This document shows, in pieces, positions 1 through 15,692 of a DNA stretch of 15,692 nucleotides. Within the stretch, counting starts at the first letter, position 1. Every line of letters begins with the position of its first letter. Origin of the DNA: a virus (lineage: Duplodnaviria > Heunggongvirae > Uroviricota > Caudoviricetes); IMG/VR virus record IMGVR_UViG_2778261417_000005, positions 1 to 15,692 of that record; one strand, 5' to 3'. Both the position numbers and the translations under genes were made by a program. The notes beneath the pieces were generated by a model. It was not told the origin of the DNA. It searched no databases and was given only the letters and a program-made list of their open reading frames with translations.

Positions 1-77
1 AACTGATGGAGATGGAAGCCACGGGAGCACCTCAAAAACACCATCATACACTAAATCAGTAAGTTGGCACCATTACC
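1..77 (-). mobile_element. IS1-family insertion sequence, terminal 77 bp (IRL-type end plus first codons of insA); body lies beyond the window start
   Basis: Reverse complement of 1-77 is GGTAATGGTGCCAACTTACTGATTTAGTGTATGATGGTGTTTTTGAGGTGCTC..., matching the IS1 left inverted repeat and leader with a few substitutions. An insA-like start (GTG GCT TCC ATC TCC ATC AGT, V/M-A-S-I-S-I-S) runs leftward from position 22. Confidence 0.8.
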
Positions 78-378
78 TTATTTCTTCGCTTCCGGTAGTG
101 CCTATATCGTTGCTATGTTACCGGTATTTGCCATGCTGGCGAACGTCTCCGGCGCACCGTTAATGTTAACCGCGCTGGCACTGTTGTTCTCCAACTCCTA
201 TGGCGGCATGGTTACTCACTATGGCGGCGCGGCAGGTCCGGTCATCTTTGGCGTGGGTTATAACGATATTAAATCCTGGTGGTTGGTCGGTGCGGTACTG
301 ACGATATTAACCTTCCTGGTGCATATCACCCTCGGCGTGTGGTGGTGGAATATGCTGATCGGCTGGAACATGCTGTAA
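78..378 (+). pseudogene. ybhI: 3' fragment of a DASS-family (CitT-like) anion transporter gene, 5' part displaced by IS1
   Basis: Open frame to TAA at 376-378 encodes about 100 aa of hydrophobic helices (…SGSAYIVAMLPVFAMLANVSGAPLMLTALALLF…WWWNMLIGWNML). It has no credible start: the tracked TTG at 64 lies inside the IS1 inverted repeat. Position upstream of ybhJ matches K-12 gene order as recalled. Confidence 0.6.
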
Positions 379-560
379 ATATACTCGTCATACTTCAAGT
401 TGCATGTGCTGCGTTTGCGTTCGCTCACCCCAGTCACTTACTTATGTAAGCTCCTGGGGATTCACTCACTTGTCGCCTTCCTGCAACTCGAATTATTTAG
501 AGTATATCCATTTATTATCTTTCTGCGCACTTCACGGTGCGCAGATATCTGGAGCATTTG

Positions 561-2822: not shown

Positions 2823-2845
2823 AAAGCGCCATGTGAATGTAGGTC

Positions 2846-3040
<195 letters not shown>

Positions 3041-3055
3041 AATAGTTAATTGCTC

Positions 3056-4339
3056 TTACTTCTTCGCCTCTGCAACCACTTTACTACCCACGCCGCGGTT
3101 ATTGTATTCCCACATGCGGTTGTAGTTAGTGTCATTCAGATTGCGCTGTATTTCGTCGTTATCATCTACGCTGCCGGTATTACCCGCAAACGGACGATTA
3201 GAGATCACCGCATCGGCCCACGGTTTAGCCGTGTTAAAACCTTCGTTGATGGCGCTATCACGGATCACCACCTGACCGTTGGTATTGGCATCAACATCCA
3301 GCGAGCGGCCCAGTTGCGCCACACCATCACCGAAAGCATTGAAACGGCTGTTTACGGCGAGGAAACCGTAGTAAATGTTGGACAGCGTAGCCGGTGCAAA
3401 CACATACGCTTCTTGCTGAGTACGTGAGTTCACCACGCGGAATTCGGTGTTATCGAACACCACTGCGCCGCGACCAGAAACGATATCCACATCCCCTTCA
3501 ATGTAGCTGTTGGTCACCAGCGTACGCGGCTGACGATTCGTTTCCAGACGGTTCTGCACACCGCTGTTGGTGACAAAGAAGGTGTTCTGACGACCGAGAA
3601 TGTTAACGTTGTTAATCTGTACCTGGTCACCATCAGTACGCAGTGCCACCGCCGGATGGTTACCTGCATCTACGCTATCGCCCAGCGTGTTTTCGATGGT
3701 CAGATTTTGCAGTTGCAGGCCATTGTTTTGTGACCAGAAGACCGCAGAGCAGAGAACACCGATACTGTCGCTGCGTTTGCTCTGGCAGCTATCGTACATA
3801 TACCACGCTGGTTTACCTGGCATATATTTGCCGCGCGGGTTGACGTCGTGACGCCAGTCGGCAGGGCTCATGCCACCATCAAGGGAAAGCCCAATCTTCA
3901 CATCAATCGGTTTTTCACCTGTACCGTACAGAGTAATTCCACCCGGAGCGGCAGGGACATATACCGTTCCCTGATACTCACCAGGCATCACGGCAATATA
4001 CTGGCGCTTGTTGGTACGCTTGATAATTGCCGCATCTACCGCCGCCTGAATCGTGGTATGCGTTACACCTTGAGTGCCCGCCGGGCCGACAACAAAGTCA
4101 GGTTGCGCAGGCAGGGTAATCGGGGAAGGATTCCACGCTGCAGCACCTGGTGTCAGGGATGCAAAATAGTGTTGAGCATCGAAATTCTGCGCTTCTTTTG
4201 CCGACAGAATCGGGCGAGAAGAGGTACCAGGCGCGGTTTGATCAGAAGGACGTTGATCGGGCGGGGTTGAGCTACAGGCGGTCAGCGTCACGCCAAAAGC
4301 CAATGCCAGCGCCAGACGGGAAACTGAAAATGTGTTCAC
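3056..4339 (-). CDS. ybhC: Outer-membrane lipoprotein, pectinesterase-like family, 427 aa
   Basis: 427-aa ORF with lipoprotein signal MNTFSVSRLALALAFGVTLTAC (lipobox LTAC), GTG start at 4339. Sits immediately chromosome-side of the att core, as for K-12 ybhC. Confidence 0.9.
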   Translation of the reverse strand: MNTFSVSRLALALAFGVTLTACSSTPPDQRPSDQTAPGTSSRPILSAKEAQNFDAQHYFASLTPGAAAWNPSPITLPAQPDFVVGPAGTQGVTHTTIQAAVDAAIIKRTNKRQYIAVMPGEYQGTVYVPAAPGGITLYGTGEKPIDVKIGLSLDGGMSPADWRHDVNPRGKYMPGKPAWYMYDSCQSKRSDSIGVLCSAVFWSQNNGLQLQNLTIENTLGDSVDAGNHPAVALRTDGDQVQINNVNILGRQNTFFVTNSGVQNRLETNRQPRTLVTNSYIEGDVDIVSGRGAVVFDNTEFRVVNSRTQQEAYVFAPATLSNIYYGFLAVNSRFNAFGDGVAQLGRSLDVDANTNGQVVIRDSAINEGFNTAKPWADAVISNRPFAGNTGSVDDNDEIQRNLNDTNYNRMWEYNNRGVGSKVVAEAKK

Positions 4340-4385
4340 AGGTTGCTCCGGGCTATGAAATAGAAAAATGAATCCGTTGAAGCCT

Positions 4386-4473
4386 GCTTTTTTATACTAA
4401 GTTGGCATTATAAAAAAGCATTGCTTATCAATTTGTTGCAACGAACAGGTCACTATCAGTCAAAATAAAATCA
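4386..4473. other. Prophage attachment site attL: lambda 15-bp core plus P' arm
   Basis: Core GCTTTTTTATACTAA at 4386-4400, preceded by attB-type host arm (…TTGAAGCCTGC) and followed by GTTGGCATTATAAAAAAGCATTGCTTATCAATTTGTTGCAACGAACAGGTCACTATCAGTCAAAATAAAATCATTATTTG, recognised as the lambda P' arm. It abuts the int stop at 4474. Confidence 0.9.
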
Positions 4474-5544
4474 TTATTTGATTTCAATTTTGTCCCACTC
4501 CCTGCCTCTGTCATCACGATACTGTGATGCCATGGTGTCCGACTTATGCCCGAGAAGATGTTGAGCAAATTTATCGCTTATCTGCTTCTCATAGAGTCTT
4601 GCAGACAAACTGCGCAACTCGTGAAAGGTTGGCGGATCCCCTTCGAAGGAGAGACCTGATGCTTTTCGTGCGCGCATAAAATACCTTGATACTGTGCCGG
4701 ATGAAAGCGGTTCACGACGAGTAGATGCAATTATGGTTTCTCCGCCAAGAATCTTTTTGCATTTATCAAGTGTTTCCTTCATTGATATCCCGAGAGCATC
4801 AACATGCAATGTTGTTGGGATGGCAATTTTTACGCCTGTTTTGCTTTGCTCGACATAAAGATATCCATCTACGATATCAGACCACTTCATTTCGCATAAA
4901 TCACCAACTCGCTGCCCGGTAACAACAGCCAGTTCCATTGCAAGTCTAAGCCAACATGGTGATGATTCTGCTGCTTGATAAATTTTCAGGTATTCGTCAG
5001 CCGTAAGTCTTGATCTCCTTACCTCTGATTTTGCAGCGCGAGTGGCTGCGACCGGGTTTGTTGTTATATGGCCTTCAGCTATAGCCTCTCGGAATGCATC
5101 GCTCAGTGTTGATCTGATTAACTTGGCTGATGCCGCCTTGCCCTCGTCTATGTATCCATTGAGCATTGCCGCAATTTCTTTTGTGGTGATGTCTTCAAGT
5201 GGAGCATCAGGCAGACCCCTCCTTATTGCTTTAATTTTGCTCATGTAATTTATGAGTGTCTTCTGCTTGATTCCTCTGCTGGCCAGGATTTTTTCGTAGC
5301 GATCAAGCCATGAATGTAACGTAACGGAATTATCACTGTTGATTCTCGCTGTCAGAGGCTTGTGTTTGTGTCCTGAAAATAACTCAATGTTGGCCTGTAT
5401 AGCTTCAGTGATTGCGATTCGCCTGTCTCGGCCTAATCCAAACTCTTTACCCGTCCTTGGGTCCCTGTAGCAGTAATATCCATTGTTTCTTATATAAAGG
5501 TTAGGGGGTAAATCCCGGCGCTCATGACTTCGCCTTCTTCCCAT
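4474..5544 (-). CDS. int: Lambda-type tyrosine integrase, 356 aa
   Basis: 356-aa ORF starting MGRRRSHERRDLPPNLYIRNNGYYCYRDPRTGKEFGLGRD…, matching lambda Int in sequence and length as recalled, with a conserved C-terminal catalytic region (…HELRSLSARLY…LLGHKSDTMASQYRDD). Adjacent to attL. Confidence 0.95.
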   Translation of the reverse strand: MGRRRSHERRDLPPNLYIRNNGYYCYRDPRTGKEFGLGRDRRIAITEAIQANIELFSGHKHKPLTARINSDNSVTLHSWLDRYEKILASRGIKQKTLINYMSKIKAIRRGLPDAPLEDITTKEIAAMLNGYIDEGKAASAKLIRSTLSDAFREAIAEGHITTNPVAATRAAKSEVRRSRLTADEYLKIYQAAESSPCWLRLAMELAVVTGQRVGDLCEMKWSDIVDGYLYVEQSKTGVKIAIPTTLHVDALGISMKETLDKCKKILGGETIIASTRREPLSSGTVSRYFMRARKASGLSFEGDPPTFHELRSLSARLYEKQISDKFAQHLLGHKSDTMASQYRDDRGREWDKIEIK

Positions 5545-5740
5545 TTCTGATCCTCTTCAAAAGGCTACCTGTTACTGGTCGATTTAAGTCAACCTTTACC
5601 GCTGATTCGTGGAACAGATACTCTCTTCCATCCTTAACCGGAGGAGGGAATATCCTGCACTCGCGTACCCATCGACGAACTGTTTCAAGGCTTCTTGGGC
5701 GTCGCTGGCGTGCGTTCCACTCCTGAAGTGTCAAGTACAT
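5522..5740 (-). CDS. xis: Excisionase, 72 aa
   Basis: 72-aa ORF MYLTLQEWNARQRRPRSLETVRRWVRECRIFPPPVKDGREYLFHESAVKVDLNRP…, matching lambda Xis as recalled. Its 3' end overlaps the int start by 23 nt. Confidence 0.9.
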   Translation of the reverse strand: MYLTLQEWNARQRRPRSLETVRRWVRECRIFPPPVKDGREYLFHESAVKVDLNRPVTGSLLKRIRNGKKAKS

Positions 5741-5765
5741 CGCAAAGTCTCCGCAATTACACGCA

Positions 5766-5786
5766 AGAAAAAACCGCCATCAGGCG
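5766..5786 (-). terminator. Putative intrinsic terminator (minus strand) just upstream of xis
   Basis: GC-only 5-bp stem CCGCC (5773-5777) / GGCGG (5782-5786) with loop ATCA. On the minus strand it is followed by a six-U tract (plus-strand A-run 5766-5772). Short stem, so tentative. Confidence 0.4.
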
Positions 5787-5947
5787 GCTTGGTGTTCTTT
5801 CAGTTCTTCAATTCGAATATTGGTTACGTCTGCATGTGCTATCTGCGCCCACAGCATCCAGTGGTCATAGCAGTCGCTGATGTTCTCGGCTTCGATAACT
5901 CTGTTGAATGGTTCTCCATTCCATTCACCTGTGACTCGGAAGTGCAT
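5779..5947 (-). CDS. Small hypothetical phage protein, 55 aa
   Basis: Hand translation of the minus strand from ATG (plus 5945-5947) to TGA (plus 5779-5781): MHFRVTGEWNGEPFNRVIEAENISDCYDHWMLWAQIAHADVTNIRIEELKEHQAA. Not in the ORF track (under the length cutoff). Its stop lies inside the hairpin above. Confidence 0.45.
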
Positions 5948-6189
5948 TTATCATCTCCATAAAACAAAACCCGCCGTAGCGAGTTCAGATAAAAGAAATC
6001 CTCGTCAGTGCGAGGATGCTGTTCATTGCTGCTATACACTTTTTTGCTCTCAACGTAAGCGGTAGCCCATTCTGTTGGGTTGGTGCAGTTGCTTTTAGGA
6101 AATGCTATTTACCCCTTAAATGTCGGCTGAAAGAGCTAAAATCCATGCAAAAAATTTACGCAATTTTGTGTATTATTGTGCAGTAAGTA

Positions 6190-6792
6190 ATGAGCTATTT
6201 TCTGCGCAAAAAATGGATGGTAAATTTGTCCGGGTCAGGAAAAATTTTATGGGCGCTAAACATGAAAAAAGATTCGTATCCTTATTTGATTTGCATGACA
6301 GTTTCAGGGCTGATCTTTATTTTCCTTTTCTTCTGGTGGCGGGCAGATATCTACAGGGTCACGTTTCTTAATCAGAGTATATCCCACTATTACATTCTGT
6401 TTAGCATGGGAATAGCTTTTCTGTTATCTCTGTTTTGGGTTAAGAAGGGGATAGTAAAACAAAGCGGCTGGAAGAGTCTGTCAGCATACCTTAAGGTTTA
6501 TGCAGGGATGTGCATATTTGCTGGATTTTTTCTGATTATACCCCTTACGACACTAACTTATTTTTTGCCTGGAGAGACATCGTCTTATGTTGCACCGTAT
6601 CGGTATACTTCCGGTAGTTCAAAAAGTTGTTCTGGAGCTGAGGTGGATGACCCCGATCTACATGAGAATATTCGCATTTGCTATCCGTATGGCAATTATG
6701 AGTACGATAATATTATCTATGTTGAAAAGAAAATTAATATATTAGGTGCGGTAGTGACATATGCACAGACCGCGCGTGATGATACTGAATGA
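6190..6792 (+). CDS. Hypothetical integral membrane protein (3 predicted TM helices plus about 75-aa C-terminal domain), 200 aa; AT-rich accessory gene
   Basis: Only plus-strand ORF inside a minus-strand operon. Hydrophobic stretches YLICMTVSGLIFIFLFFWW, YYILFSMGIAFLLSLFWV and VYAGMCIFAGFFLIIPLTTLTYFL. Visibly AT-rich codon usage. Start uncertain (ATG 6190, 6217 or 6262; none has a strong Shine-Dalgarno). Confidence 0.6.
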   Translation: MSYFLRKKWMVNLSGSGKILWALNMKKDSYPYLICMTVSGLIFIFLFFWWRADIYRVTFLNQSISHYYILFSMGIAFLLSLFWVKKGIVKQSGWKSLSAYLKVYAGMCIFAGFFLIIPLTTLTYFLPGETSSYVAPYRYTSGSSKSCSGAEVDDPDLHENIRICYPYGNYEYDNIIYVEKKINILGAVVTYAQTARDDTE

Positions 6793-6826
6793 TATAGTAT
6801 ATAGCGGGCAAGTTTTAGTTAATTTA

Positions 6827-6850
6827 TCGAGGTAATATAATTTACCTCGA
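6827..6850 (+). terminator. Candidate terminator hairpin downstream of the membrane-protein gene
   Basis: Perfect 9-bp stem TCGAGGTAA (6827-6835) / TTACCTCGA (6842-6850), loop TATAAT. The downstream tract ACTCGTTTGTTCT is only moderately U-rich. Confidence 0.35.
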
Positions 6851-7002
6851 CTCGTTTGTTCTGGTATTAATATTTCGCTTTACGACCGATTTTTATCTGA
6901 TGATATCATGCGGTTTTCATATACTGACTTACTGTCTTTTCTCCGTTAGCGATTTTCTCCTGCTCAGCGATGATTTTATCTTTGGCTTCTAGTTAATTTC
7001 GC

Positions 7003-7224
7003 TCACTTCGAACCTCTCTGTTTACTGATAAGCTCCAGATCTTGCTGGCAACTGGCACAAGTCCGACAACCCTGAACGGCCAGTCGTCTTCGTTCATCTA
7101 TCGGATCGCCACACTCACAACAATGAGTGGCAGATATAGCCTGGTGGTTCAGGCGGCGCATTTTTATTGCTGTGTTGCGCTGTAATTCTTCAATTTCTGA
7201 TGCTGAATCAATTATGTCTGCCAT
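7003..7224 (-). CDS. DksA/TraR-family C4 zinc-finger protein (lambda Orf73-like), 73 aa
   Basis: 73 aa with paired Cys motifs HCCECGDPIDERRRLAVQGCRTCASC, the CxxC…CxxC layout and CE-CG-PI-RR signature of TraR/DksA-type RNA-polymerase-binding proteins. Confidence 0.8.
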   Translation of the reverse strand: MADIIDSASEIEELQRNTAIKMRRLNHQAISATHCCECGDPIDERRRLAVQGCRTCASCQQDLELISKQRGSK

Positions 7225-7285
7225 CTTTCATTAATCCCTGAATTGTTGGTTAATACGCTTGAGGGTGAATGCGAATAATAAAAAA

Positions 7286-7300
7286 GGAGCCTGTAGCTCC
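7286..7300 (-). terminator. Candidate intrinsic terminator (minus strand)
   Basis: Stem GGAGC (7286-7290) / GCTCC (7296-7300), loop CTGTA. On the minus strand it is followed by U-rich tract TTTTTTATTATT (plus A-run 7274-7285). Confidence 0.4.
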
Positions 7301-7322
7301 CTGATGATTTTGCTTTTCATGT

Positions 7323-7604
7323 TCACCGTTCCTTAAAGACGCCGTTCAACATGCCGATCGCCAGGCTTAAATGAGTCGGTGTGAATCCCATCAGCGTTAC
7401 CGTTTCGCGGTGCTTCTTTAGTACGCTACGGCAAATGTCATCGACGTTTTTATCCGGAAACTGCTGTCTGGCTTTTTTGATTTCAGAATTAGCCTGACGG
7501 GCAATGCTGCGAAGGGCGTTTTCTTGCTGAGGTGTCATTGAACAAGCCCCATGTCGGCAAGCATAAGCACACAGAATATGAAGCCCGCTGCCAGAAAAAT
7601 GCAT
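7323..7604 (-). CDS. Hypothetical small phage protein with N-terminal Cys/His cluster, 93 aa (start uncertain; internal Met at 7538 would give 71 aa)
   Basis: ORF MHFSGSGLHILCAYACRHGACSMTPQQENALRSIARQANSEIKK… with C-x3-C-x-H-x2-C near the N-terminus. Its length equals lambda ea8.5 (93 aa, from memory) but identity is not verified. No clear Shine-Dalgarno at either start. Confidence 0.5.
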   Translation of the reverse strand: MHFSGSGLHILCAYACRHGACSMTPQQENALRSIARQANSEIKKARQQFPDKNVDDICRSVLKKHRETVTLMGFTPTHLSLAIGMLNGVFKER

Positions 7605-7614
7605 TCAGTGGTTG

Positions 7615-7806
7615 TCATACCTGGTCTCTCTCATCTGCTTCTGCTTTCGCCACCATCATTTCCAGCTTTTGTGAAAGGGATGCGGCTAACGTATGAAATT
7701 CTTCGTCTGTTTCTACTGGTATTGGCACAAACCTGACTCCAATTTGAGCGAGGCTATGTGCCATCTCGATACTCGTTCTTAACTCAACGGGAGATGCTTT
7801 GTGCAT
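7615..7806 (-). CDS. Small delta-region protein, 63 aa (lambda orf63-like by size and position)
   Basis: 63-aa [66 protein letters not shown]. It overlaps the next gene by 28 nt, the arrangement recalled for lambda orf63/orf60a. Confidence 0.55.
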   Translation of the reverse strand: MHKASPVELRTSIEMAHSLAQIGVRFVPIPVETDEEFHTLAASLSQKLEMMVAKAEADERDQV

Positions 7807-7961
7807 ACAGCTCCCCGTTTATTATTTATCTCCTCAGCCAGCCGCTGTGCTTTCAGGGGATTTCTGATAACAGAAAGGCCGGGAAATACCCAGCCTCGCT
7901 TTGTAATGGAGTAGACGAAAGTGATCGCGCCTACCCGGATATTATCGTGAGGATGCGTCAT
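7779..7961 (-). CDS. Small delta-region protein, 60 aa (lambda orf60a-like)
   Basis: ATG at 7959-7961 overlaps the exo stop (7958-7960) in ATGA fashion and gives a 60-aa product [24 protein letters not shown]… The track's 7967 start adds two codons. Confidence 0.5.
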
Positions 7962-8638
7962 CGCCATTGCTCCCCAAATACAAAACCAATTTCAGCCAGT
8001 GCCTCGTCCATTTTTTCGATGAACTCCGGCACCATCTCGTCAAAACTCGCCATGTAATTTTCATCCCGCTCAACCACGACATAATGCAGGCCTTCACGCT
8101 TCATTCGTGGGTCATAGTTGGCAAAGTACCAGGCATCTTTTCGCGTCACCCACATGCTGTACTGCACCTGGGCCATGTAAGCCGACTTTATGGCCTCGAA
8201 ACCACCGAGCCGGAATTTCATGAAATCCCGGGAGGTAAACGGGCATTTCAGTTCAAGGCCGTTGCCGTCACTGCATAAACCATCGGGAGAGCAGGCGGTG
8301 CGCATACTTTCGTCGCGATAGATGATCGGGGATTCAGTAACATTCACGCCGGAAGTAAACTCAAACAGGGCTCTGGCGTCGTTCTCGTACTGTTTTCCCC
8401 AGGCCAGCGCCTTAGCATTAACTTCCGGAGCCACACCGGTGCAAACCTCAGCCAGCAGGGTGTGGAAGTAGGACATTTTCATGTCAGGCCACTTCTTTCC
8501 TGAGCGGGGCTTTGCTATCACGTTGTGAACTTCTGAAGCGGTGATGACGCCGAGCCGTAATTTGTGCCATGCATCATCCCCCTGTTCGACAGCTCTCACG
8601 TCGATCCCGGTACGCTGCAGGATAATGTCCGGTGTCAT
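7958..8638 (-). CDS. exo: Lambda-type 5'-3' exonuclease (Red alpha), 226 aa
   Basis: 226-aa [68 protein letters not shown]…, matching lambda Exo as recalled. 4-nt overlap with bet upstream. Confidence 0.95.
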
Positions 8639-9420
8639 GCTGCCACCTTCTGCTCAGTGGCTTTCTGTTTCAGGAATCCAAGAGCTTTCACTGCTTCGGC
8701 CTGTGTCAGTTCTGACGATGCGCGAATGTCGCGGCGAAATATCTGGGAACAGAGCGGCAATAAGTCGTCATCCCATGTTTTATCCAGGGCGATCAGCAGA
8801 GTGTTAATCTCCTGCATGGTTTCATCGTTAACCGGAGTGATGTCGCGTTCCGGCTGACGTTCTGCAGTGTATGCGGTATTTTCGACAATGCGCTCGGCTT
8901 CATCCTTGTCATAGATACCAGCAAATCCGAAGGCCAGACGGGCACACTGAATCATGGCTTTATGACGTAACATCCGTTTGGGATGCGACTGCCACGGTCC
9001 GGTGATTTCTCTGCCTTCGCGGGTTTTGAATGGTTCGCGGCGGCATTCATCCATCCACTCGGTAACGCAGATCGGATGATTGCGGTCCTTGCGGTAAATC
9101 CGGCATGTGCAGGATTCATTGTCCTGCTCAAAGTCCATACCATCAAACTGCTGGTTTTCATTGATGATGCGGGACCAGCCATCAACGCCCACCACCGGAA
9201 CGATGCCGTTCTGCTTATCAGGGAAGGCGTAAATTTCTTTCGTCCACGGATTAAGGCCGTACTGGTTGGCGACGATCAGCAATGCGATGAACTGCGCATC
9301 GCTGGCATCGCCTTTAAATGCCGTCTGGCGAAGAGTGGTGATCAGTTCCTGTGGGTCGACAGAATCCATGCCGACACGTTCAGCCAGCTTCCCAGCCAGC
9401 GTTGCGAGTGCTGTACTCAT
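8635..9420 (-). CDS. bet: Single-strand annealing protein Beta (Red beta), 261 aa
   Basis: 261-aa [69 protein letters not shown]…, matching lambda Bet as recalled. Confidence 0.95.
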
Positions 9421-9425
9421 CCGTT

Positions 9426-9722
9426 TTATACCTCTGAATCAATATCAACCTGATGGTGAGCAATGGTTTCAACCATGTACCGGATGTGTTCTGCCATGCG
9501 CTCCTGAAACTCAACATCGTCATCAAATGCACGGGTAATGGCTTTTTTGCTGGCCCCGCAGCGTTGTAAATGATCGATGCAGAGCGATTCAAACAAATGC
9601 TGGGGCAGGCCTTTGTCCATGTCGTCTGCCAGTTCTGCCTCTTTCTCTTCACGGGCGATCTGCTGGTAGTGACGCGCCCAGCTCTGAGCCTCAAGACGAT
9701 CCTGAATGTAATAAGCGTTCAT
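9426..9722 (-). CDS. gam: Gam (RecBCD inhibitor), 98-aa short form
   Basis: [98 protein letters not shown], near-identical to lambda Gam with a few substitutions relative to my recollection. An in-frame TAA lies 19 codons upstream of the ATG. Confidence 0.9.
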
Positions 9723-9798
9723 GGCTGAACTCCTGAAAATGGCTGTGAAAATATCGCCCGCGAAATGCCAGGCTGATTAGGAAAACAAGAAAGGGGGG

Positions 9799-10089
9799 TT
9801 AGTGATTCAGGCCGTTACCGCGTCCGTCGAGAAAAACTTCCACGAGCAAATCACGGGTATAAGTGCGCTCGATGCCGCGATGCAGATAAAGCCGTCCGCG
9901 TAAATTAGCTGATGCAGTCCAGGTACCATCTTTGTGTTTGACCAGCATTCCTGGCATGACCGCACCTCGATTAACGGTCTGCGTTCCGTAATGTTGATGA
10001 ACCATAAAAACTCCTGCCCGTAAGCTGGGCTGCTGAACATATAAAGACTTCTGCGCGTATTCAGGCGGTGGATGGCCGCCGGTTGTCAT
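9799..10089 (-). CDS. Hypothetical small protein at the kil/cIII position (up to 96 aa; true start may be an internal Met)
   Basis: ORF with GAGG 10 nt upstream of the ATG at 10089. Its 3' end overlaps the region upstream of gam, as kil does in lambda. No recognisable N-type Arg-rich motif. Confidence 0.45.
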   Translation of the reverse strand: MTTGGHPPPEYAQKSLYVQQPSLRAGVFMVHQHYGTQTVNRGAVMPGMLVKHKDGTWTASANLRGRLYLHRGIERTYTRDLLVEVFLDGRGNGLNH

Positions 10090-10282
10090 AACTAAGCCGC
10101 CTCGTTGAAGCGACTAAGGTATGAAATGTTGAGTTAATTTCAGCTGGTCACACCGACGTTCACGCGTCCGTTTCACCCCTCGCACTCCCCGAAGCCTGCT
10201 GAAATTCAAACTGCGGATCTAAGCGGTCATCGCAACGGTGAATCAGGTGGTTGCCGTATCGTTGTGTTGTTGCGATATGGTG

Positions 10283-10326
10283 ATAATAGCTATTGCTATT
10301 GGTGATATCAATACTTATTGCTATTA
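10283..10326 (-). promoter_or_regulatory. pL-like early leftward promoter with operator-like repeats (OL)
   Basis: On the minus strand: -35 TTGATA (plus 10306-10311), 17-nt spacer, -10 TATTAT (plus 10283-10288). Plus-strand TATTGCTATT occurs at 10291-10300 (in the spacer) and 10316-10325 (upstream of -35). Palindrome AATAGCTATT at 10285-10294. Confidence 0.55.
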
Positions 10327-10447
10327 GTTGATGTGTTTTGATATTAAATGTTTGATAGCAAAAAGAATTAATTTTGTGACTTGCATCGCATAGCGATAAC
10401 TGAAGTGAGGTGTGGTGGTTTTTTGGACGGTTTGTGTGATGAGGGGA

Positions 10448-10480
10448 GGCAAAAGAAAACCCGGCACTGGGGCCGGGTTT
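10448..10480 (-). terminator. Intrinsic terminator ending the repressor-side accessory operon (tIMM-like)
   Basis: Perfect 9-bp stem AAACCCGGC (10457-10465) / GCCGGGTTT (10472-10480), 6-nt loop. On the minus strand it is followed by UCUUUUGCC. Lies 76 bp downstream of the stop at 10556. Confidence 0.6.
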
Positions 10481-10555
10481 AGATGGATAAGAAAGGGTAA
10501 TAGGGAATGAAAAATCGCTTTGCGTAATGCAAGGTGGCGAGCAGTTTCTTAAGCA

Positions 10556-10996
10556 CTAAAGAAAAAAGTACATTGATAGCTTATAAAGACCTGTTCCTGC
10601 AGCGATGATTGCTGGAACACCAAGCAATACCGCAAGCTTTGCGTCTGAAATCTTTCTATCGACAGCATCGATGGAGGGTTTTTTGGCTAGTGAATCTTTT
10701 ATTGAATCGAGTCGCTCCAGAACAGCGATCATGTTTCTGTCGATAGATTTGACATCTGTCTTAAGCTCATCAACGTCACGTCGGATATAGGACACATCAG
10801 ACTCAAGCTTTGCAACTTTCGATTCAAGCACATTATTACTCCCAGAGCCACCGCTACCACTTGATTGTAGCATAGGTACATTACCGCCAGACATACCAGC
10901 TGATTGAGAAAATGCTGCAGTGTGCAAAGATGATGATCTTGCCGCTTGTTCAAGCTTTTCAGTTAGGTTTGGAGCTTCGTAATAACCGTGTTTCAT
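10556..10996 (-). CDS. Hypothetical tail-anchored membrane protein with coiled-coil region, 146 aa
   Basis: N-terminal Ser/Gly-rich segment (SSGSGGSGSNN), heptad-like region (VAKLESDVSYIRRDVDELKTDVKSIDRNMIAVLERLDSIKDSLAKK), and a single C-terminal hydrophobic helix (LAVLLGVPAIIAAGTGLYKLSMYFFL). Start is 8 nt after the upstream gene's stop (translational coupling). AT-rich. Confidence 0.7.
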   Translation of the reverse strand: MKHGYYEAPNLTEKLEQAARSSSLHTAAFSQSAGMSGGNVPMLQSSGSGGSGSNNVLESKVAKLESDVSYIRRDVDELKTDVKSIDRNMIAVLERLDSIKDSLAKKPSIDAVDRKISDAKLAVLLGVPAIIAAGTGLYKLSMYFFL

Positions 10997-11004
10997 TGTT
11001 AATA

Positions 11005-11274
11005 TTATGACTTATTGGTTTTAGCTCTATCATGCTGATCGCGAATAAAGTCAGCGAGTTTAAGCATTAAATCTTCCGTCATGCGAATTGTTGCAATGTT
11101 GTACTTTACGTTTTCAGTGTCATTACTACCATCAGCGCCCCATTCTGTAACATGCTGAAAGAAAGATATGGAGCCTAAGCGATCGTCATCTTCCCCAAAA
11201 GATGAATATCCAAATGCATCAGCATATGCATCTACACAGTTATTTGATTTTTTTATAAGTTTTTTATCACTCAT
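11005..11274 (-). CDS. Hypothetical small acidic soluble protein, 89 aa
   Basis: ORF MSDKKLIKKSNNCVDAYADAFGYSSFGEDDDRLGSISFFQHVTEWGADGSNDTENVKYNIATIRMTEDLMLKLADFIRDQHDRAKTNKS. Shine-Dalgarno GGAAAGG about 5 nt upstream of the ATG. Starts 80 bp downstream of the repressor stop, same strand. Confidence 0.7.
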   Translation of the reverse strand: MSDKKLIKKSNNCVDAYADAFGYSSFGEDDDRLGSISFFQHVTEWGADGSNDTENVKYNIATIRMTEDLMLKLADFIRDQHDRAKTNKS

Positions 11275-11353
11275 TTTTGCCTTTCCCGTAATGTTATTTT
11301 TATAAAGAATTCTTTCAGCGCATTACCCAAAAGCCTCATCAGCACGCAGCTGA

Positions 11354-12046
11354 TTATCCGTGTTTCCTATACGTCTGCGGCATACTGCCAATAACCTTCC
11401 CGAAAATGAACACCCGGTTCATCTCGTCTTTCTCGATCGGGTCCCACGGTGAGTAGCTCTTGTTATCAGAGATAACCAGTAGCTTATCTTTCATCATTTG
11501 CAGGCGCTTTACATGGGCTGTGTCGTCGTACAGAAACGCATAGATACCATCACCGTCGAAAGATTTAACCGTGATATCAACGAACAGCAGATCACCTGGT
11601 TCGATCGTTCCTGACATGCTGTCACCGCGCACGTTAATGATGCGGATATTTTCCGCCTTCCTGCCATCGAACATGTGACGAGCATCGTCAAACGAGTACT
11701 CAACCGAGCGTAGAACTTCCACAAACTCACGGTTGATGACACCCGGTCCGGCACTGACTTCTATATCAAGAACGTCAATCTTGAAGTATTTTGAATGGCT
11801 GACAGCAGGCTTCCCTGATTGTTGACCGTCATTTCTCATCGGGCCTATGCCTGATGAGAGCCATTCTGTTCGAACACCCAATGCATTAGCTATTTCAACA
11901 ATTTTTGTTGAGCCGCGCGCGTTGCCGCTTGTCAGTCTCCAGATTGTGGGTTGAGCTACGCCAGACGCCTTTGCAAGAGCGCCTTGAGACATTCCAGATT
12001 GTTCCATCGCTAGGTTTAAGCGATCAGCAAGAGTTTCTTTTTTCAT
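11354..12046 (-). CDS. cI-type prophage repressor (N-terminal HTH plus C-terminal LexA-like S24 peptidase domain), 230 aa from the Met at 12046
   Basis: HTH segment MSQGALAKASGVAQPTIWRL. Candidate autocleavage Ala-Gly (…EVSAGPGV…). Peptidase motif VRGDSMSGTIEPGDLLFVD with downstream Lys (VKRL). The tracked start at 12082 lies upstream of the predicted pRM -10, so 12046 is preferred. Not lambda cI by sequence. Confidence 0.85.
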   Translation of the reverse strand: MKKETLADRLNLAMEQSGMSQGALAKASGVAQPTIWRLTSGNARGSTKIVEIANALGVRTEWLSSGIGPMRNDGQQSGKPAVSHSKYFKIDVLDIEVSAGPGVINREFVEVLRSVEYSFDDARHMFDGRKAENIRIINVRGDSMSGTIEPGDLLFVDITVKSFDGDGIYAFLYDDTAHVKRLQMMKDKLLVISDNKSYSPWDPIEKDEMNRVFIFGKVIGSMPQTYRKHG

Positions 12047-12156
12047 AAGTTTTAATTTATACGCTTGCGTATTGATGGTCAAAACACGTTTTGCTATTGC
12101 TTGGGTTAATACGCATTGCTATTATTCATTCATTGCAATACCAATAGGAATTGATA
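12047..12156. promoter_or_regulatory. Divergent immunity control region (OR, pRM-like leftward, pR-like rightward)
   Basis: pR-like: -35 TTGCTT (12097-12102), 17-nt spacer, -10 TATTAT (12120-12125). pRM-like on the minus strand: -35 TTGACC (plus 12077-12082), -10 TATAAA (plus 12056-12061), implying an almost leaderless repressor mRNA. Operator-like TTGCTATTGC (12091-12100), ATTGCTATT (12115-12123), palindrome ATTGCAAT (12132-12139). Confidence 0.55.
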
Positions 12157-12384
12157 ATGACAAATCAAACCATTCAACTCGCAATCAGTATTACAGGTAG
12201 TCAAAAACGACTGGCAGATCTATGCGGTGTAGCCCAACCCACAGTTTGGCGTTGGCTACACGGTGGCGGAATTGATGCCCGCTATGTAATGAAAATTGTC
12301 TCAGCCACTGGTGGAAAGATTAAACCAGCAGATATTCGTCCCGACCTCGCACCATTGTTTAACGCGAGTAATTCTGCCGCCTAA
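12157..12384 (+). CDS. Cro/YdaS-like HTH regulator, 75 aa
   Basis: ATG at 12157 with AGGAA 6 nt upstream. HTH segment GSQKRLADLCGVAQPTVWRWL. First rightward gene opposite the repressor. Confidence 0.8.
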   Translation: MTNQTIQLAISITGSQKRLADLCGVAQPTVWRWLHGGGIDARYVMKIVSATGGKIKPADIRPDLAPLFNASNSAA

Positions 12385-12408
12385 ACTGCGGCGTTAACTG
12401 ATAAGGCA

Positions 12409-12954
12409 ATGACTATGCAACCACTTACATACCAACAGACTAGCGGATTTAGCCCGACTGCGGTGATAAATCGTTCTCAAACAAAACAGGCGCCAGGCCA
12501 CGAAAAAATCCGTGATGCCGTTCGCGCCTGGTCGGCTGCAGATAATCAGGATGTTGTTGCCGCACTCATTGTGAATGAGTATCGGGAGCAGGGCGGCGGC
12601 ACCATCGATTTCCCTGATGATGTCAGCCGTGCACGCCAGAAGCTGTTCCGCTTCCTCGATAACAAATTCGATTCTGAAAAATACCGAAATAACGTGCGTG
12701 AACTGACCCCGGCAATTCTGGCGGTACTACCGCTGGAATATCGCGGCCACCTGGTTGAGCAGGATAGCTACATGGCTCGGCTGGCTGAAATGGAAAAGGA
12801 ACTCAGTGAGGCAAAACAGGCTGTCATTCTCAACGCACCACGCCACCAGAAACTGAAGGAGATGAGTGAAGGCATTGTGTCGATGTTTCGTGTGGACCCG
12901 GATTTGGCTGGTCCACTGATGGCGATGGTCACCACCATGCTGGGGGCAATATGA
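12409..12954 (+). CDS. Hypothetical regulatory protein at the cII position (possibly a YdaT-like CII analogue), 181 aa
   Basis: ORF begins 24 bp after the cro-like stop and ends overlapping the next ORF. Family assignment is from recollection of Rac/CP-933-type regions where a cro-like gene is followed by ydaT; not verified. Confidence 0.5.
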   Translation: MTMQPLTYQQTSGFSPTAVINRSQTKQAPGHEKIRDAVRAWSAADNQDVVAALIVNEYREQGGGTIDFPDDVSRARQKLFRFLDNKFDSEKYRNNVRELTPAILAVLPLEYRGHLVEQDSYMARLAEMEKELSEAKQAVILNAPRHQKLKEMSEGIVSMFRVDPDLAGPLMAMVTTMLGAI

Positions 12955-13040
12955 CAGGTTCGGAAATGGCGAAAGCCGGTCTGCGCGAACAGAACCGACT
13001 TTCAGGTGCAAATCGTAACACACTCATTGCGGGAGGAATT

Positions 13041-13970
13041 ATGGCAAACACTGCTGAGATATTCAATTTTCCAGTGCCGGATGTGGCACAAAAGGAGCGG
13101 CGCGTGGCAGATCTCGACGATGGTTATACGCGCATTGCAAATGAGTTGCTGGAAGCTGTGATGCTGGCCGGATTAACACAGCACCAGCTTCTGGTCTTCC
13201 TGGCTGTCATGCGCAAAACATATGGCTTTAATAAAAGACTGGATTGGGTGAGCAACGAGCAACTTTCCGAATTGACCGGGATATTGCCGAACAAGTGTTC
13301 TGCTGCAAAAAGCGTTCTGGTAAAGCGTGGGATTCTTATTCAGAGCGGGCGGAATATCGGCATTAATAATGTGGTCAGTGAATGGTCAACATTACCCGAA
13401 TCAGGTAAGAAAAATAAAGTTTACCTGAAAGAGGTAAATTTACCTGAATCAGGTAAGAAAAGTTTACCCAAATCAGGTAAAGGCGTTTACCCGAATCAGG
13501 TAAACACAAAAGACAAACTAACAAAAGACAATATAAAACCTTTTTCGTCCGAGAATTCTGACGAATCCTCTGACCAGCCAGAAAACGATCTTCCTGTGAT
13601 GAAACCGGATGCTGCAATTCAGAGCGGCAGCAAGTGGGGGACAGCAGAAGACCTGACCGCCGCAGAGTGGATGTTTGACATGGTGAAGACCATCGCGCCA
13701 TCAGCCAGAAAACCGAATTTTGCAGGGTGGGCTAACGATATCCGCCTGATGCGTGAACGTGATGGACGTAACCACCGCGACATGTGCGTGCTGTTCCGCT
13801 GGGCATGCCAGGACAACTTCTGGTCCGGTAACGTGCTGAGTCCGGCTAAACTCCGCGACAAGTGGACCCAGCTCGAAATCAACCGTAACAAGCAACAGGC
13901 TGGCGTGACAGCCAGAAAACCAAAACTCGACCTGACAAACACTGACTGGATTTACGGGGTGGATTTATGA
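13041..13970 (+). CDS. O: Replication initiator, O-like (iteron-binding), 309 aa from the ATG at 13041
   Basis: MANTAEIFNFPVPDVAQKERRVADLDDGYTRIANELLEAVMLAGLTQHQLLVFLAVMRKTYGFNK… resembles the lambda O N-terminus but diverges. GGGAGG at 13031-13036. Iterons lie inside the gene. The tracked start at 12951 adds 30 codons of doubtful coding. Confidence 0.85.
   Translation: MANTAEIFNFPVPDVAQKERRVADLDDGYTRIANELLEAVMLAGLTQHQLLVFLAVMRKTYGFNKRLDWVSNEQLSELTGILPNKCSAAKSVLVKRGILIQSGRNIGINNVVSEWSTLPESGKKNKVYLKEVNLPESGKKSLPKSGKGVYPNQVNTKDKLTKDNIKPFSSENSDESSDQPENDLPVMKPDAAIQSGSKWGTAEDLTAAEWMFDMVKTIAPSARKPNFAGWANDIRLMRERDGRNHRDMCVLFRWACQDNFWSGNVLSPAKLRDKWTQLEINRNKQQAGVTARKPKLDLTNTDWIYGVDL
13392..13503. repeat. 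Replication origin iterons (five 17-bp repeats) inside the O-like gene, followed by an AT-rich tract
   Basis: TTACCCGAATCAGGTAA (13392), TTACCTGAAAGAGGTAA (13421), TTACCTGAATCAGGTAA (13440), TTACCCAAATCAGGTAA (13464), TTACCCGAATCAGGTAA (13487). Each is an internal inverted repeat TTACC…GGTAA. AT-rich AAACACAAAAGACAAACTAACAAAAGACAATATAAAACC follows. Confidence 0.8.
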
Positions 13971-14668
13971 AAAACATCGCCGCACAGATGGTTAACTTTG
14001 ACCGTGAGCAGATGCGTCGGATCGCCAACAACATGCCGGAACAGTACGACGAAAAGCCGCAGGTACAACAGGTAGCGCAGATCATCAACGGTGTGTTCAG
14101 CCAGTTACTGGCAACTTTCCCGGCGAGCCTGGCTAACCGTGACCAGAATGAACTGAACGAAATCCGCCGCCAGTGGGTTCTGGCTTTCCGGGAAAACGGG
14201 ATCACCACAATGGAACAGGTTAACGCAGGAATGCGCGTAGCCCGTCGGCAGAATCGACCATTCCTGCCATCACCCGGGCAGTTTGTCGCCTGGTGCCGGG
14301 AAGAAGCATCCGTTAACGCCGGGCTGCCAAACGTCAGCGAGCTGGTTGATATGGTTTACGAGTATTGCCGGAAGCGTGGCCTGTATCCGGATGCAGAGTC
14401 TTATCCGTGGAAATCGAACGCGCATTACTGGCTGGTTACCAACCTGTACCAGAACATGCGGGCCAATGCGCTTACTGATGCGGAATTACGGCGCAAGGCT
14501 GCCGATGAACTGTCCTGTATGACCGCGCGAATTAACCGTGGTGAGGCGATACCTGAACCAGTAAAACAGCTTCCTGTCATGGGCGGTAGACCTCTAAATC
14601 GTGCACAGGCTCTGGCGAAGATCGCAGAAATCAAAGCTAAGTTTGGGCTGAAAGGAGCAAGTGTATGA
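13967..14668 (+). CDS. P: Replication protein P (DnaB helicase loader), 233 aa
   Basis: MKNIAAQMVNFDREQMRRIANNMPEQYDEKPQVQQVAQIINGVFSQLLATFPASLANRDQNE…, near-identical to lambda P as recalled and the same length. ATGA overlap with the O stop. Confidence 0.95.
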   Translation: MKNIAAQMVNFDREQMRRIANNMPEQYDEKPQVQQVAQIINGVFSQLLATFPASLANRDQNELNEIRRQWVLAFRENGITTMEQVNAGMRVARRQNRPFLPSPGQFVAWCREEASVNAGLPNVSELVDMVYEYCRKRGLYPDAESYPWKSNAHYWLVTNLYQNMRANALTDAELRRKAADELSCMTARINRGEAIPEPVKQLPVMGGRPLNRAQALAKIAEIKAKFGLKGASV

Positions 14669-14838
14669 CGGGCAAAGAGGCAATTATTTATTACCTGGGG
14701 ACGCATAAGAGTTTCTGTGCGCAGGACGTTGCTGCGGCAACAGGTGTGACAGTAACCTGCATAAATCAGGCAGCAGCTAAAATGGCGCGTGCAGGAATCC
14801 TGGTCATTGATGGTAAGGTCTGGCGAACGTTTGTTTAA
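14665..14838 (+). CDS. Ren-like ORF, apparently C-terminally truncated (57 aa)
   Basis: ATG overlaps the P stop. AAAGGAG lies 7 nt upstream. Product MTGKEAIIYYLGTHKSFCAQDVAAATGVTVTCINQAAAKMARAGILVIDGKVWRTFV resembles the N-terminus of lambda Ren (about 96 aa, from memory). The frame ends where AT-rich foreign sequence begins. Confidence 0.6.
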   Translation: MTGKEAIIYYLGTHKSFCAQDVAAATGVTVTCINQAAAKMARAGILVIDGKVWRTFV

Positions 14839-14984
14839 CGGTTAGCTACTCAGGATGATAGGGCGCGGCAAGTGAGTATGAAGCGGATTTTCAGGAATGC
14901 CATCAGAGTTTGGAAATAAAGTGGGTTTTCTAGTGGCAAGAGACTTGATAATATTTAGTTCTTTGAAGCCAAGGAGATAGGGTT

Positions 14985-15479
14985 ATGAGAAAATTTATTT
15001 TAGCCTTTGTCATAAGTGCCTCGTTTACAGCAAATGCTGGTGTAGAGAAGTTAGGGCCGTGGATAACAAAGTCTGAGATAAATAAAATGACTGACCAGAC
15101 TGACTTTGTGGCTCTTAATTTATCACCAGATTCATATAACAAAGCAGGTACTGATCGTGCAACTTCACTGGTGTTGCGTTGTAGTGATAACAAAACAGAT
15201 GCCTATTTATCATTCAATGATTATATGGGTTCGGACAACCCAAGAATTACAGTGCGGTTAGATGGCGGAAAGCCGGTCAAGAGTGTTTGGGGTGGTGGGG
15301 AAGGCGGTGATTCTGCATTTGCTCCACAACCAATACAATTTATAAAGACCTTGGCTAAGCATAAAAAAGCCATTTTTGGGTTTGAACCTTATGGATCAAC
15401 TATGCAAGTAGTTGAGTTTGACTTGTCTGAGATTGATAAGGTTGTGGAAAAAATTTCACAGTCTTGCAATTGGAAATGA
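14985..15479 (+). CDS. Hypothetical secreted (periplasmic) protein with cleavable signal peptide, 164 aa
   Basis: Strong Shine-Dalgarno AAGGAG (14971-14976) 8 nt before the ATG. Signal peptide MRKFILAFVISASFTANA with AxA site. Two Cys in the mature part (C66, C162). AT-rich. Followed by a canonical terminator. Confidence 0.75.
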   Translation: MRKFILAFVISASFTANAGVEKLGPWITKSEINKMTDQTDFVALNLSPDSYNKAGTDRATSLVLRCSDNKTDAYLSFNDYMGSDNPRITVRLDGGKPVKSVWGGGEGGDSAFAPQPIQFIKTLAKHKKAIFGFEPYGSTMQVVEFDLSEIDKVVEKISQSCNWK

Positions 15480-15496
15480 CAAAAAAATTTCATATG

Positions 15497-15520
15497 AACC
15501 CAGTTGGCGCTGGGTTTTTT
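15497..15520 (+). terminator. Rho-independent terminator
   Basis: 7-bp stem AACCCAG (15497-15503) / CTGGGTT (15510-15516), loop TTGGCG, running into a T-tract ending at 15520. An A-tract upstream gives possible bidirectional activity. Confidence 0.7.
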
Positions 15521-15562
15521 ATTTCAGTAGCCAATAATGCATTCAAAATCTCTTACTTGAGA

Positions 15563-15692
15563 GGTAATGACTCCAACTTACTGATAGTGTTTTATGTTCA
15601 GATAATGCCCGATGACTTTGTCATGCAGCTCCACCGATTTTGAGAACGACAGCGACTTCCGTCCCAGCCGTGCCAGGTGCTGCCTCAGATTC
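15563..15692 (-). mobile_element. IS1 insertion sequence, IRR-side 130 bp (element continues beyond the window end)
   Basis: GGTAATGACTCCAACTTACTGATAGTGTTTTATGTTCAGATAATGCCCGATGACTTTGTCATGCAGCTCCACCGATTTTGAGAACGACAGCGACTTCC… matches the IS1 right end as recalled, with one mismatch in the inverted repeat. Confidence 0.9.
15578..15692 (-). CDS. insB: IS1 transposase InsB, 3' end (partial; 5' part beyond the window)
   Basis: Minus-strand reading ends …[16 protein letters not shown] with TAA at plus 15578-15580, the recalled InsB C-terminus. Confidence 0.75.

Follow-up and report, generated by a model that had tools for sequence, protein, structure and literature searches.

Here we describe a pair of genes found in a stretch of DNA of 15,692 nucleotides (nt) from a virus of the class Caudoviricetes (IMG/VR record IMGVR_UViG_2778261417_000005, positions 1 to 15,692), which is referred to below as the window. 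The window corresponds to the left-to-centre part of a lambda-like Escherichia coli prophage whose integration site is icd, and strain Sx181-0-1 carries a sequence 100% identical to it over the stretch compared (window positions 10480-11353). Its genes are arranged in the order int, xis, exo, bet, gam, kil, the pair of open reading frames (ORFs) under study, cI, cro, a YdaT-like gene, O, P and ren. Both genes of the pair, A (11005-11274, minus strand, 89 amino acids, aa) and B (10556-10996, minus strand, 146 aa), are labelled hypothetical protein in RefSeq. An earlier reading made from the letters of the window alone (the sequence-only reading) had placed two genes downstream of a cI-type repressor and on its strand, and we confirmed both their coordinates and their orientation. 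We found that the pair belongs to a large modular family that combines unrelated partner proteins with interchangeable tail-anchored coiled-coil proteins. This membership is the main feature of the pair, and the sequence-only reading had missed it.

The cI-type repressor gene (11354-12082, minus strand; S24 family peptidase in RefSeq) matches the Pfam families Peptidase_S24 (E = 1.5e-18) and HTH_3 (E = 1.5e-6), and belongs to the backbone context; its transcript most likely carries the cassette. The distance from cI to A is 79 nt, and the 5' spacer of the cassette (11275-11352, minus strand) holds a GGAAAGG ribosome-binding site for A; no terminator-like site was found on the minus strand between the two genes (11274-11354). 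The stop codon of A and the start of B are separated by a junction of 8 nt (10997-11004, minus strand), and B is followed by the 3' untranslated end of the cassette (10481-10555, minus strand) and by an intrinsic terminator (10447-10480, minus strand) made of a 9-bp stem at 10457-10480 with 6 G-C pairs and of a run of T extending down to about 10447. The strong terminator ascribed to the two genes in the sequence-only reading is thus real, but it is an element of the backbone, common to phages with other cargo, and not of the cassette. Further downstream, a pL-like promoter (TTGATA-17-TATTAT, 10283-10311, minus strand) that scores 10/12 is enclosed by operator-like repeats (10277-10326, minus strand), and these repeats recur in the cI/cro divergent region (12075-12124), where the direct repeat D2 is 72% identical. 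The promoter-like site and the recurrence of its repeats at cI/cro fit a pL/OL region, as had been proposed, and this region marks the downstream limit of the immunity transcript.

The cassette (10481-11352, 872 bp) fits exactly between the stop codon of cI and the backbone terminator upstream of pL. Its GC content of 0.40 (A, 0.36; B, 0.43) compares with 0.48 for the window, 0.47 for cI and 0.52 for exo-bet-gam, in agreement with its earlier description as an AT-rich module. Phages PhiR30_1 and 4A7 have a backbone 96-98% identical to that of the window, including the cI DNA, and their homology breaks at the cI stop codon (11353/11355) and restarts at 10478/10480. Between these same breakpoints, both phages carry a different two-gene cargo. 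The alternative cargos match the PADLOC systems PDC-M63A/B and PDC-M11A/B with E values of 1e-36 to 1e-133, PhiR30_1 carrying PDC-M63 (a DUF6932 protein and a 310-aa protein; L129 1690-3044) and 4A7 carrying PDC-M11 (a 353-aa protein and an ASCH-domain protein; L130 1503-2919). PDC-M63 and PDC-M11 are candidate, unvalidated defence systems. They resemble A-B by their identical slot behind a 96-98% identical cI gene and by their organization as one- or two-gene cassettes, but their proteins are unrelated to A and B, and A-B is not represented in PADLOC-DB v2.0.0. BstA, also unrelated to A and B, is encoded by phage BTP1 in an equivalent repressor-adjacent slot (PMC8585504). Sharp presence/absence boundaries in near-identical backbones, together with a deviant GC content, are the hallmarks of a moron, and both were observed here. 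The cassette is therefore a moron, an insert missing from otherwise identical phages, and the slot between cI and the terminator is a swap point at which A-B alternates with candidate defence systems, consistent with the expectation that this slot carries differing cargo among phages.

Furthermore, an allele of the cassette with 81% identity is located behind an identical cI protein in another prophage, integrated at argU in a Shiga toxin-producing E. coli (STEC) strain. The cassette was found in 201 of 5426 complete E. coli genomes (~4%), always as a single copy and always on the chromosome, and is common in STEC and other clinical genomes. Two main alleles account for these genomes, 50 sharing at least 95% identity with the cassette of the window and 151 sharing ~81%. 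The gene of svsR, a small RNA reported to limit phage adsorption, reportedly lies at the cI 3' end of NC-SV, another lambdoid prophage located at icd (PMC12803456, 2026). This lead, which concerned the cI 3' end at about 11354-11430 of the window, was dropped; NC101 is not among the best 60 of the 201 matching records (the 50 at 95% or more, and ten of the 151 at ~81%). When the cassette was compared with alleles of other prophages, the ratio of nonsynonymous to synonymous substitution rates (dN/dS) was 0.06-0.10 for A and 0.19-0.41 for B, and both genes are under purifying selection. These low ratios, along with homologues in several genera of Enterobacterales, indicate that A and B are more than chance ORFs.

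A and B are oriented like cI and lie upstream of pL, which is the rexAB position named in the sequence-only reading. Because of this orientation and position, and since no terminator follows cI, the pair can be transcribed only with cI, by read-through from pRM or pRE, or from an internal promoter. From this arrangement we firmly infer that A-B would not be transcribed from the lytic promoters, and cotranscription with cI in the lysogen appears probable. In the Salmonella phage UPF_BP1, the gene homologous to A and the end of mnt overlap, so that no space is left for a separate promoter. Translational coupling between A and B, which had also been claimed, is plausible, but the two genes are 8 nt apart without overlapping, and no Shine-Dalgarno sequence is visible ahead of B in the 8-nt junction.

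Expression beside the repressor points to a role in the lysogen without telling which one, and would also suit lysogenic conversion or a prophage housekeeping task unrelated to other phages. In that event, the pair could act as an ElaB/YqjD-like stress or ribosome factor, as a modulator of repressor stability or induction similar to 434 Hex or lambda RexB, or as a host-fitness or virulence factor. The tail-anchored coiled-coil architecture of B described below is common to E. coli ElaB and YqjD, with which no sequence match was found, and the abundance of the pair in STEC and other clinical genomes is compatible with such a role. Likewise, hex, which adjoins the cI gene of phage 434, is reported to act on repressor cleavage (PMC3564112). 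Against this explanation, which we regard as quite unlikely, the slot alternates with candidate defence systems, and further counterarguments come from the partners and the genomic positions of the pair.

B can be divided into four segments, all on the minus strand. Residues 1-23 (10928-10996) form a variable N-terminal peptide with a predicted helix at residues 10-23, and residues 24-56 (10829-10927) form a disordered Gly/Ser-rich tether, with a predicted local distance difference test (pLDDT) score below 50 at residues 24-44 and 46-50. Residues 57-103 (10688-10828) constitute a coiled coil of 47 residues of unbroken heptads, with V, M or L at position a and L, I or V at position d, the 3-4 hydrophobic spacing being uninterrupted between L57 and L103. 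The C-terminal membrane helix (LAVLLGVPAIIAAGTGLYK...) occupies residues 121-146 (10559-10636), the Kyte-Doolittle maximum of 1.8 being reached at residue 119. The AlphaFold2 model (pLDDT 64) predicts helices at residues 10-23, 54-105 and 109-145 and a disordered Gly/Ser region at residues 24-53, and the sole hydrophobic segment of the protein (~121-146) falls within helix 109-145. The Ser/Gly-rich N-terminus, heptads and single C-terminal transmembrane helix recognized from the letters of the window are therefore borne out by both sequence and model. Five K/R residues flank the membrane segment on its N-terminal side and one follows it; under the positive-inside rule, this distribution suggests that B is tail-anchored, with its bulk probably facing the cytoplasm.

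Against distant cassettes, dN/dS was 0.06-0.14 for the coiled coil of B and ~0.05 for its membrane helix, at saturated dS, and the helix displays an invariant G/P/T pattern. These observations indicate that the window-type body of B is more than an inert anchor. Searches of Pfam and NCBIfam returned nothing above threshold for B, the sub-threshold Pfam matches being restricted to the coiled coil, and searches of PADLOC-DB v2.0.0 returned only weak coiled-coil matches (GajA, LmuB and PbeC, E of at least 0.006). B belongs to PHROG 3556, annotated as function unknown. Among PDB sequences, B matched only coiled coils of many kinds, including the tail needles of P22 and HK620 (E ~0.005); we regard these two matches as a product of heptad composition and rejected mimicry of a tail needle by B.

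A was confirmed to be acidic (isoelectric point 4.98, 16 D/E versus 12 K/R) and devoid of any hydrophobic segment, as expected of a soluble protein. It is predicted to adopt a soluble beta-beta-beta-alpha fold, and neither a helix-turn-helix nor a ribbon-helix-helix was found in this predicted fold. A belongs to PHROG 4231, also of function unknown, and had no match above threshold among the families of Pfam and NCBIfam, none at all in PADLOC, and none among PDB sequences (best E 0.5). An exhaustive search with an A-family profile yielded only 8 clusters of 92-99 aa and two doubtful matches, one to a WD40-type repeat protein (P0133) and one to a protein of 1343 aa (P0132). Therefore, A defines a small orphan family. 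A type II toxin-antitoxin system is not supported, as neither protein matches a toxin or antitoxin family and A lacks a helix-turn-helix or ribbon-helix-helix; toxin matches remained below threshold both for B (YdaT_toxin, 15.5 bits, cutoff 21) and for cI (YdaS_toxin, 12.4 bits, cutoff 30).

To place the pair in its family, we surveyed ~130 related loci, relying on simple ORF calling. A scan of genome contigs gave 33 loci, two of which encode near-full-length B relatives (residues 55-145, 68-77% identity), most of the others being short matches inside the coiled-coil segment. More than 100 relatives of B were found in E. coli, Salmonella, Klebsiella, Citrobacter, Enterobacter, Pantoea, Erwinia, Serratia and Dickeya. 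Conservation among them is limited to the C-terminal 60% of the protein, consisting of the coiled coil and the membrane helix. At every locus with upstream DNA retained (88/88), B is directly preceded by an ORF of 87-187 aa on its own strand, which either abuts it or shows a slight overlap with it. At most loci, the junction lies between a 32-nt overlap and a 9-nt gap, the widest gaps reaching 29 nt.

The products of these upstream ORFs fall into 8 BLAST clusters that represent at least six unrelated families. The 89-aa type of the window was found at 31 loci. Three clusters of proteins of 136-187 aa were joined into one superfamily by hhalign (94-96% probability); these proteins carry a GxYxV motif typical of Ig-like sandwiches and, also according to hhalign, are unrelated to the 89-aa type. 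The remaining partners are a 93-aa type, a 119-aa zinc-ribbon type, a second coiled-coil membrane protein and an 88-aa type. Six partner types were scanned against Pfam and PADLOC without any match, and the PHROGs entry for the partner types reads unknown. Such a diversity of partners on one conserved body, with combinatorial shuffling, is typical of an arms race and argues against lysogenic conversion or housekeeping.

The N-terminal 20-75 residues of B are wholly different between cassettes and track the type of partner. The 89-aa partner always occurs with a B peptide of the form YYExPNLxExLExAxKSSSLH, across three B bodies: the window type, an XhlA-like body (L093) and a third one found in UPF_BP1. 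Conversely, one type of B body occurs with five different partner families. Furthermore, three partners of the c4 type (60-70% mutual identity) are each associated with a B protein that begins with AKDYVxLVSxxSPED or a close variant, and the coiled coils and membrane helices of these three B proteins cannot be aligned. Linkage through recombination at a single joint cannot explain a peptide shared by bodies that cannot be aligned. The co-variation of partner and N-terminal peptide instead points to docking of the partner on this peptide, suggesting that A may physically bind the N-terminus of B. The coiled-coil and membrane parts are exchanged independently of the partner and N-terminal peptide, and all B-like proteins, including the divergent ones, share a common plan made of a peptide, a poly-Gly tether, heptads and a C-terminal membrane helix.

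No published description of the A-B proteins was found, and they are not among the entries of the DefensePredictor supplements. The pair is not covered by any family with a description in Pfam, NCBIfam, PADLOC or PHROGs, in agreement with the earlier proposal of a candidate undescribed module. It has an unusual modular architecture and is probably prophage cargo of an exclusion or abortive kind, expressed in lysogens.

We then looked at the genomic positions of the related pairs. Among 26 representatives, the gene directly upstream of the pair encodes an HTH_3 protein in 17 cases, 10 of them also with an S24 domain, and an Arc/Mnt-type protein in 4 cases. In UPF_BP1 and in common P22-like prophages of E. 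coli, the pair occupies the interval from mnt to gene 16, which in P22 houses sieA. Some pairs are inserted among tail genes, either on the opposite strand between K and I/J or between the major tail protein gene and those of the tape-measure chaperones, and one pair type is found at a prophage end, where it adjoins tail-fibre assembly genes. No holin or endolysin gene was found next to a pair in the loci examined, and no pair was seen outside prophages among these loci. The pairs are thus restricted to lysogeny-associated cargo slots. Their presence after cI or Mnt as well as within tail gene regions, in prophages of both siphovirus and podovirus type, speaks against a role tied to one repressor. 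In P22-like prophages of E. coli, a third ORF (107 aa, with an N-terminal hydrophobic segment and a coiled coil) follows A-B and precedes gene 16 (L133 3778-4101), and in Citrobacter prophages a predicted lipoprotein of 126 aa is encoded after the pair (L003 6474-6854).

These positions invite a comparison with superinfection exclusion. HK97 gp15, an exclusion gene in a tail-gene position, and lactococcal Sie2009 are further prophage exclusion genes found in cargo slots. If the pair worked in this way, B would be a membrane stalk that leashes A at the cytoplasmic face of the inner membrane, where the targets blocked by A could be ejection or pilot proteins, the end of the entering DNA, a holin or some host membrane protein required by the phage, and the cell would survive. 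The Gly/Ser tether and its docking peptide, which suit recruitment better than allostery, are the main argument for this non-lethal exclusion, and the replacement of sieA by homologous pairs in the slot between mnt and gene 16 of P22-like phages and the insertion of some pairs among tail genes point in the same direction. However, B has almost no periplasmic exposure, unlike known injection blockers, whose action takes place within or across the membrane. Moreover, the coiled coil and membrane helix are conserved beyond the need of an inert anchor, as judged from a dN/dS of 0.05-0.14 and the G/P/T pattern, and no PHROG labelled superinfection exclusion was found among the matches. We consequently consider exclusion of this kind unlikely.

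The product of P22 sieA blocks DNA injection (PMC10883804). It resembles A-B insofar as homologous pairs, although not that of the window, lie between mnt and gene 16, and insofar as both are small inner-membrane proteins encoded by a prophage. In contrast, SieA is a single integral membrane protein (PMC10883804), whereas A-B consists of two proteins, the membrane-bound one being tail-anchored with scant periplasmic exposure. No exclusion-annotated PHROG family was found among the matches of A or B; the sequence of SieA itself was not compared directly.

The neighbourhood of the pairs also bears on the resemblance of B to XhlA (PF10779) and to holins, which had been suggested on the basis of its coiled coil and C-terminal anchor. 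XhlA is a lysis-cassette protein of the Bacillus prophage PBSX, and B would by analogy be an XhlA-like accessory of a holin, with A as its regulator. Both proteins have a coiled coil followed by a C-terminal membrane helix, and relatives whose coiled coil is 50-58% identical to that of B, with a different, type II membrane end, match nearly the whole XhlA profile; one type II relative, P0103, reached 25.2 bits (E = 1.9e-5). One relative with the same type of body as B (P0080, UniRef) is named 'hemolysin XhlA' by one source, NCBI gives the XhlA name to the more distant type-II-bodied relatives P0102 and P0103, and PHROG 'hemolysin' families gave weak matches (E ~0.003-0.01). However, the suggested resemblance is sub-threshold for B itself, which scored 11.5 bits (E 0.34) against a gathering score of 34.7, over profile positions 3-47 only and hence within the coiled coil, and even P0103 remained below this score. 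B further differs from XhlA by its additional N-terminal docking peptide and tether, by its constant upstream partner gene and by its location in lysogeny slots, next to cI, Mnt or tail genes, instead of beside a holin or endolysin. Both the score and the genomic context rule out membership in the XhlA family, and we keep XhlA only as a resemblance. Position and orientation also exclude late transcription, the pair being upstream of pL and read with cI, and no holin or endolysin adjoins the pairs in the loci examined, making a lysis accessory highly improbable.

The closest parallel in location is lambda rexAB. In lambda, Rex mediates abortive infection and is transcribed with cI from pRM; RexA is ~279 aa long and RexB has four membrane helices. 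A-B resembles rexAB by its slot, delimited by the cI stop codon and by the terminator ahead of pL, in the same orientation, by its gene order, with a soluble protein followed by a membrane protein, and by the exchange of the cassette between phages of the same immunity region. On the other hand, no RexA or RexB family appeared among Pfam matches with E <= 1, the PADLOC matches were only coiled-coil noise, A has 89 aa, and B combines one C-terminal helix with a long coiled coil. Membership in RexAB is therefore ruled out by sequence and architecture, in line with the dissimilarity in sequence, size and architecture reported before.

A putative membrane complex of the lysogen, confined to cargo slots, alternating with candidate defence systems and equipped with diversified and shuffled partners, argues for an anti-phage role by comparison with rexAB, bstA and sieA. 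From this context, we consider an anti-phage function of the cassette probable, and the presence of candidate defence cargo in the same slot and of homologous pairs in the sieA slot strengthens this interpretation. As an overall reading, we tentatively propose that A-B may be a Rex-like, lysogen-expressed anti-phage module at the inner membrane, which we take as a serious possibility rather than as the expected outcome. According to this proposal, the cassette would be read through from the cI transcript in the lysogen, transcription stopping at the backbone terminator, and A and B would form a two-protein complex on the cytoplasmic face of the inner membrane. B would be anchored by its C-terminal helix and oligomerize via its 47-residue coiled coil, and its N-terminal peptide, carried by the flexible Gly/Ser tether, would dock A as the specificity (sensor) subunit. 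A, or A together with the peptide of B, would recognize a product of the infecting phage, upon which the coiled coil and membrane part of B would disturb the inner membrane, and infection would be aborted. The sequence-specific constraint on the body of B and the fact that its nearest relatives shade into XhlA-like proteins favour an abortive mechanism, yet a membrane-damaging step taken on its own seems doubtful.

Several observations weigh against this proposal. No validated defence-system model of PADLOC-DB v2.0.0 matches A or B, and the PDC systems of the same slot are candidates only. A flexible Gly-rich tether would be a poor transmitter of a conformational signal and would better suit a simple membrane tether, and to our knowledge pore formation has not been proven for a single tail-anchored helix. 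The similarity of B to XhlA is sub-threshold, and the AlphaFold2 model of B is of low confidence (pLDDT 64). Furthermore, linkage combined with recombination inside the conserved coiled-coil DNA could account for part of the co-variation of A and the N-terminal peptide.

Extending the proposal to the whole family, the pairs may represent an undescribed and widespread class of prophage immune systems in Enterobacterales, built in a plug-and-play manner from a tail-anchored, SNARE-like or XhlA-like coiled-coil protein as membrane effector, with several exchangeable kinds of body and a docking peptide on a poly-Gly leash that would recruit at least six unrelated sensors, each for a different phage cue. 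The putative sensor types would include the 89-aa beta3-alpha protein, the Ig-like proteins of ~140 aa, the zinc-ribbon protein and others. We put this forward as a speculative possibility that leans toward doubt.

Several features of the prophage outside the cassette were also recorded. Between the pL-like promoter and kil (10003-10283, minus strand), no ORF for an N-like antiterminator was found, and a leader of ~280 nt is present instead; PhiR30_1 and 4A7, phages of the same backbone, look alike in this region. Antitermination in this prophage may be RNA-based, as with the put sites of HK022, or follow another strategy. An AT-rich block (~6000-7805, minus strand, GC 0.37-0.39) lies in the early-left operon and includes a gene for a DGQHR-domain (DndB-like) protein, located between exo and a TraR/DksA-like gene, which is maybe further cargo. 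An Rfam match to naRNA4/CssrE (2917-2987, plus strand) is borderline, with 60.7 bits against a gathering score of 59.5, and sits in host DNA, where it falls in the 5' part of the coding sequence of rluE (~2385-3038, minus strand). Past ren, the right arm (from ~15068-15400 onward; L002 13589-18868) resembles K-12 prophage DLP12, with emrE, ybcK, ybcN, ninE, rusA and ylcG. The prophage is therefore a mosaic that joins a DLP12-like right arm to a left arm of the icd-integrating kind.

If A-B is a defence system, it would add a compact two-protein system of ~870 bp to the prophage arsenal, present in ~4% of complete E. coli genomes, STEC included, and with relatives in Salmonella, Klebsiella, Citrobacter, Enterobacter, Pantoea, Serratia and Erwinia. 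Its architecture makes the coupling of a cytoplasmic phage signal to a membrane effector testable, and chimeras would be expected to function, given the natural shuffling of sensors and bodies. The pairs also mark points of cargo exchange in prophages, namely the ends of cI and of mnt and the gaps between tail genes (K/I, and major tail protein/tape measure), which may aid in finding more systems. Even if it is not a defence system, A-B would still be a very common membrane complex expressed by lysogens.

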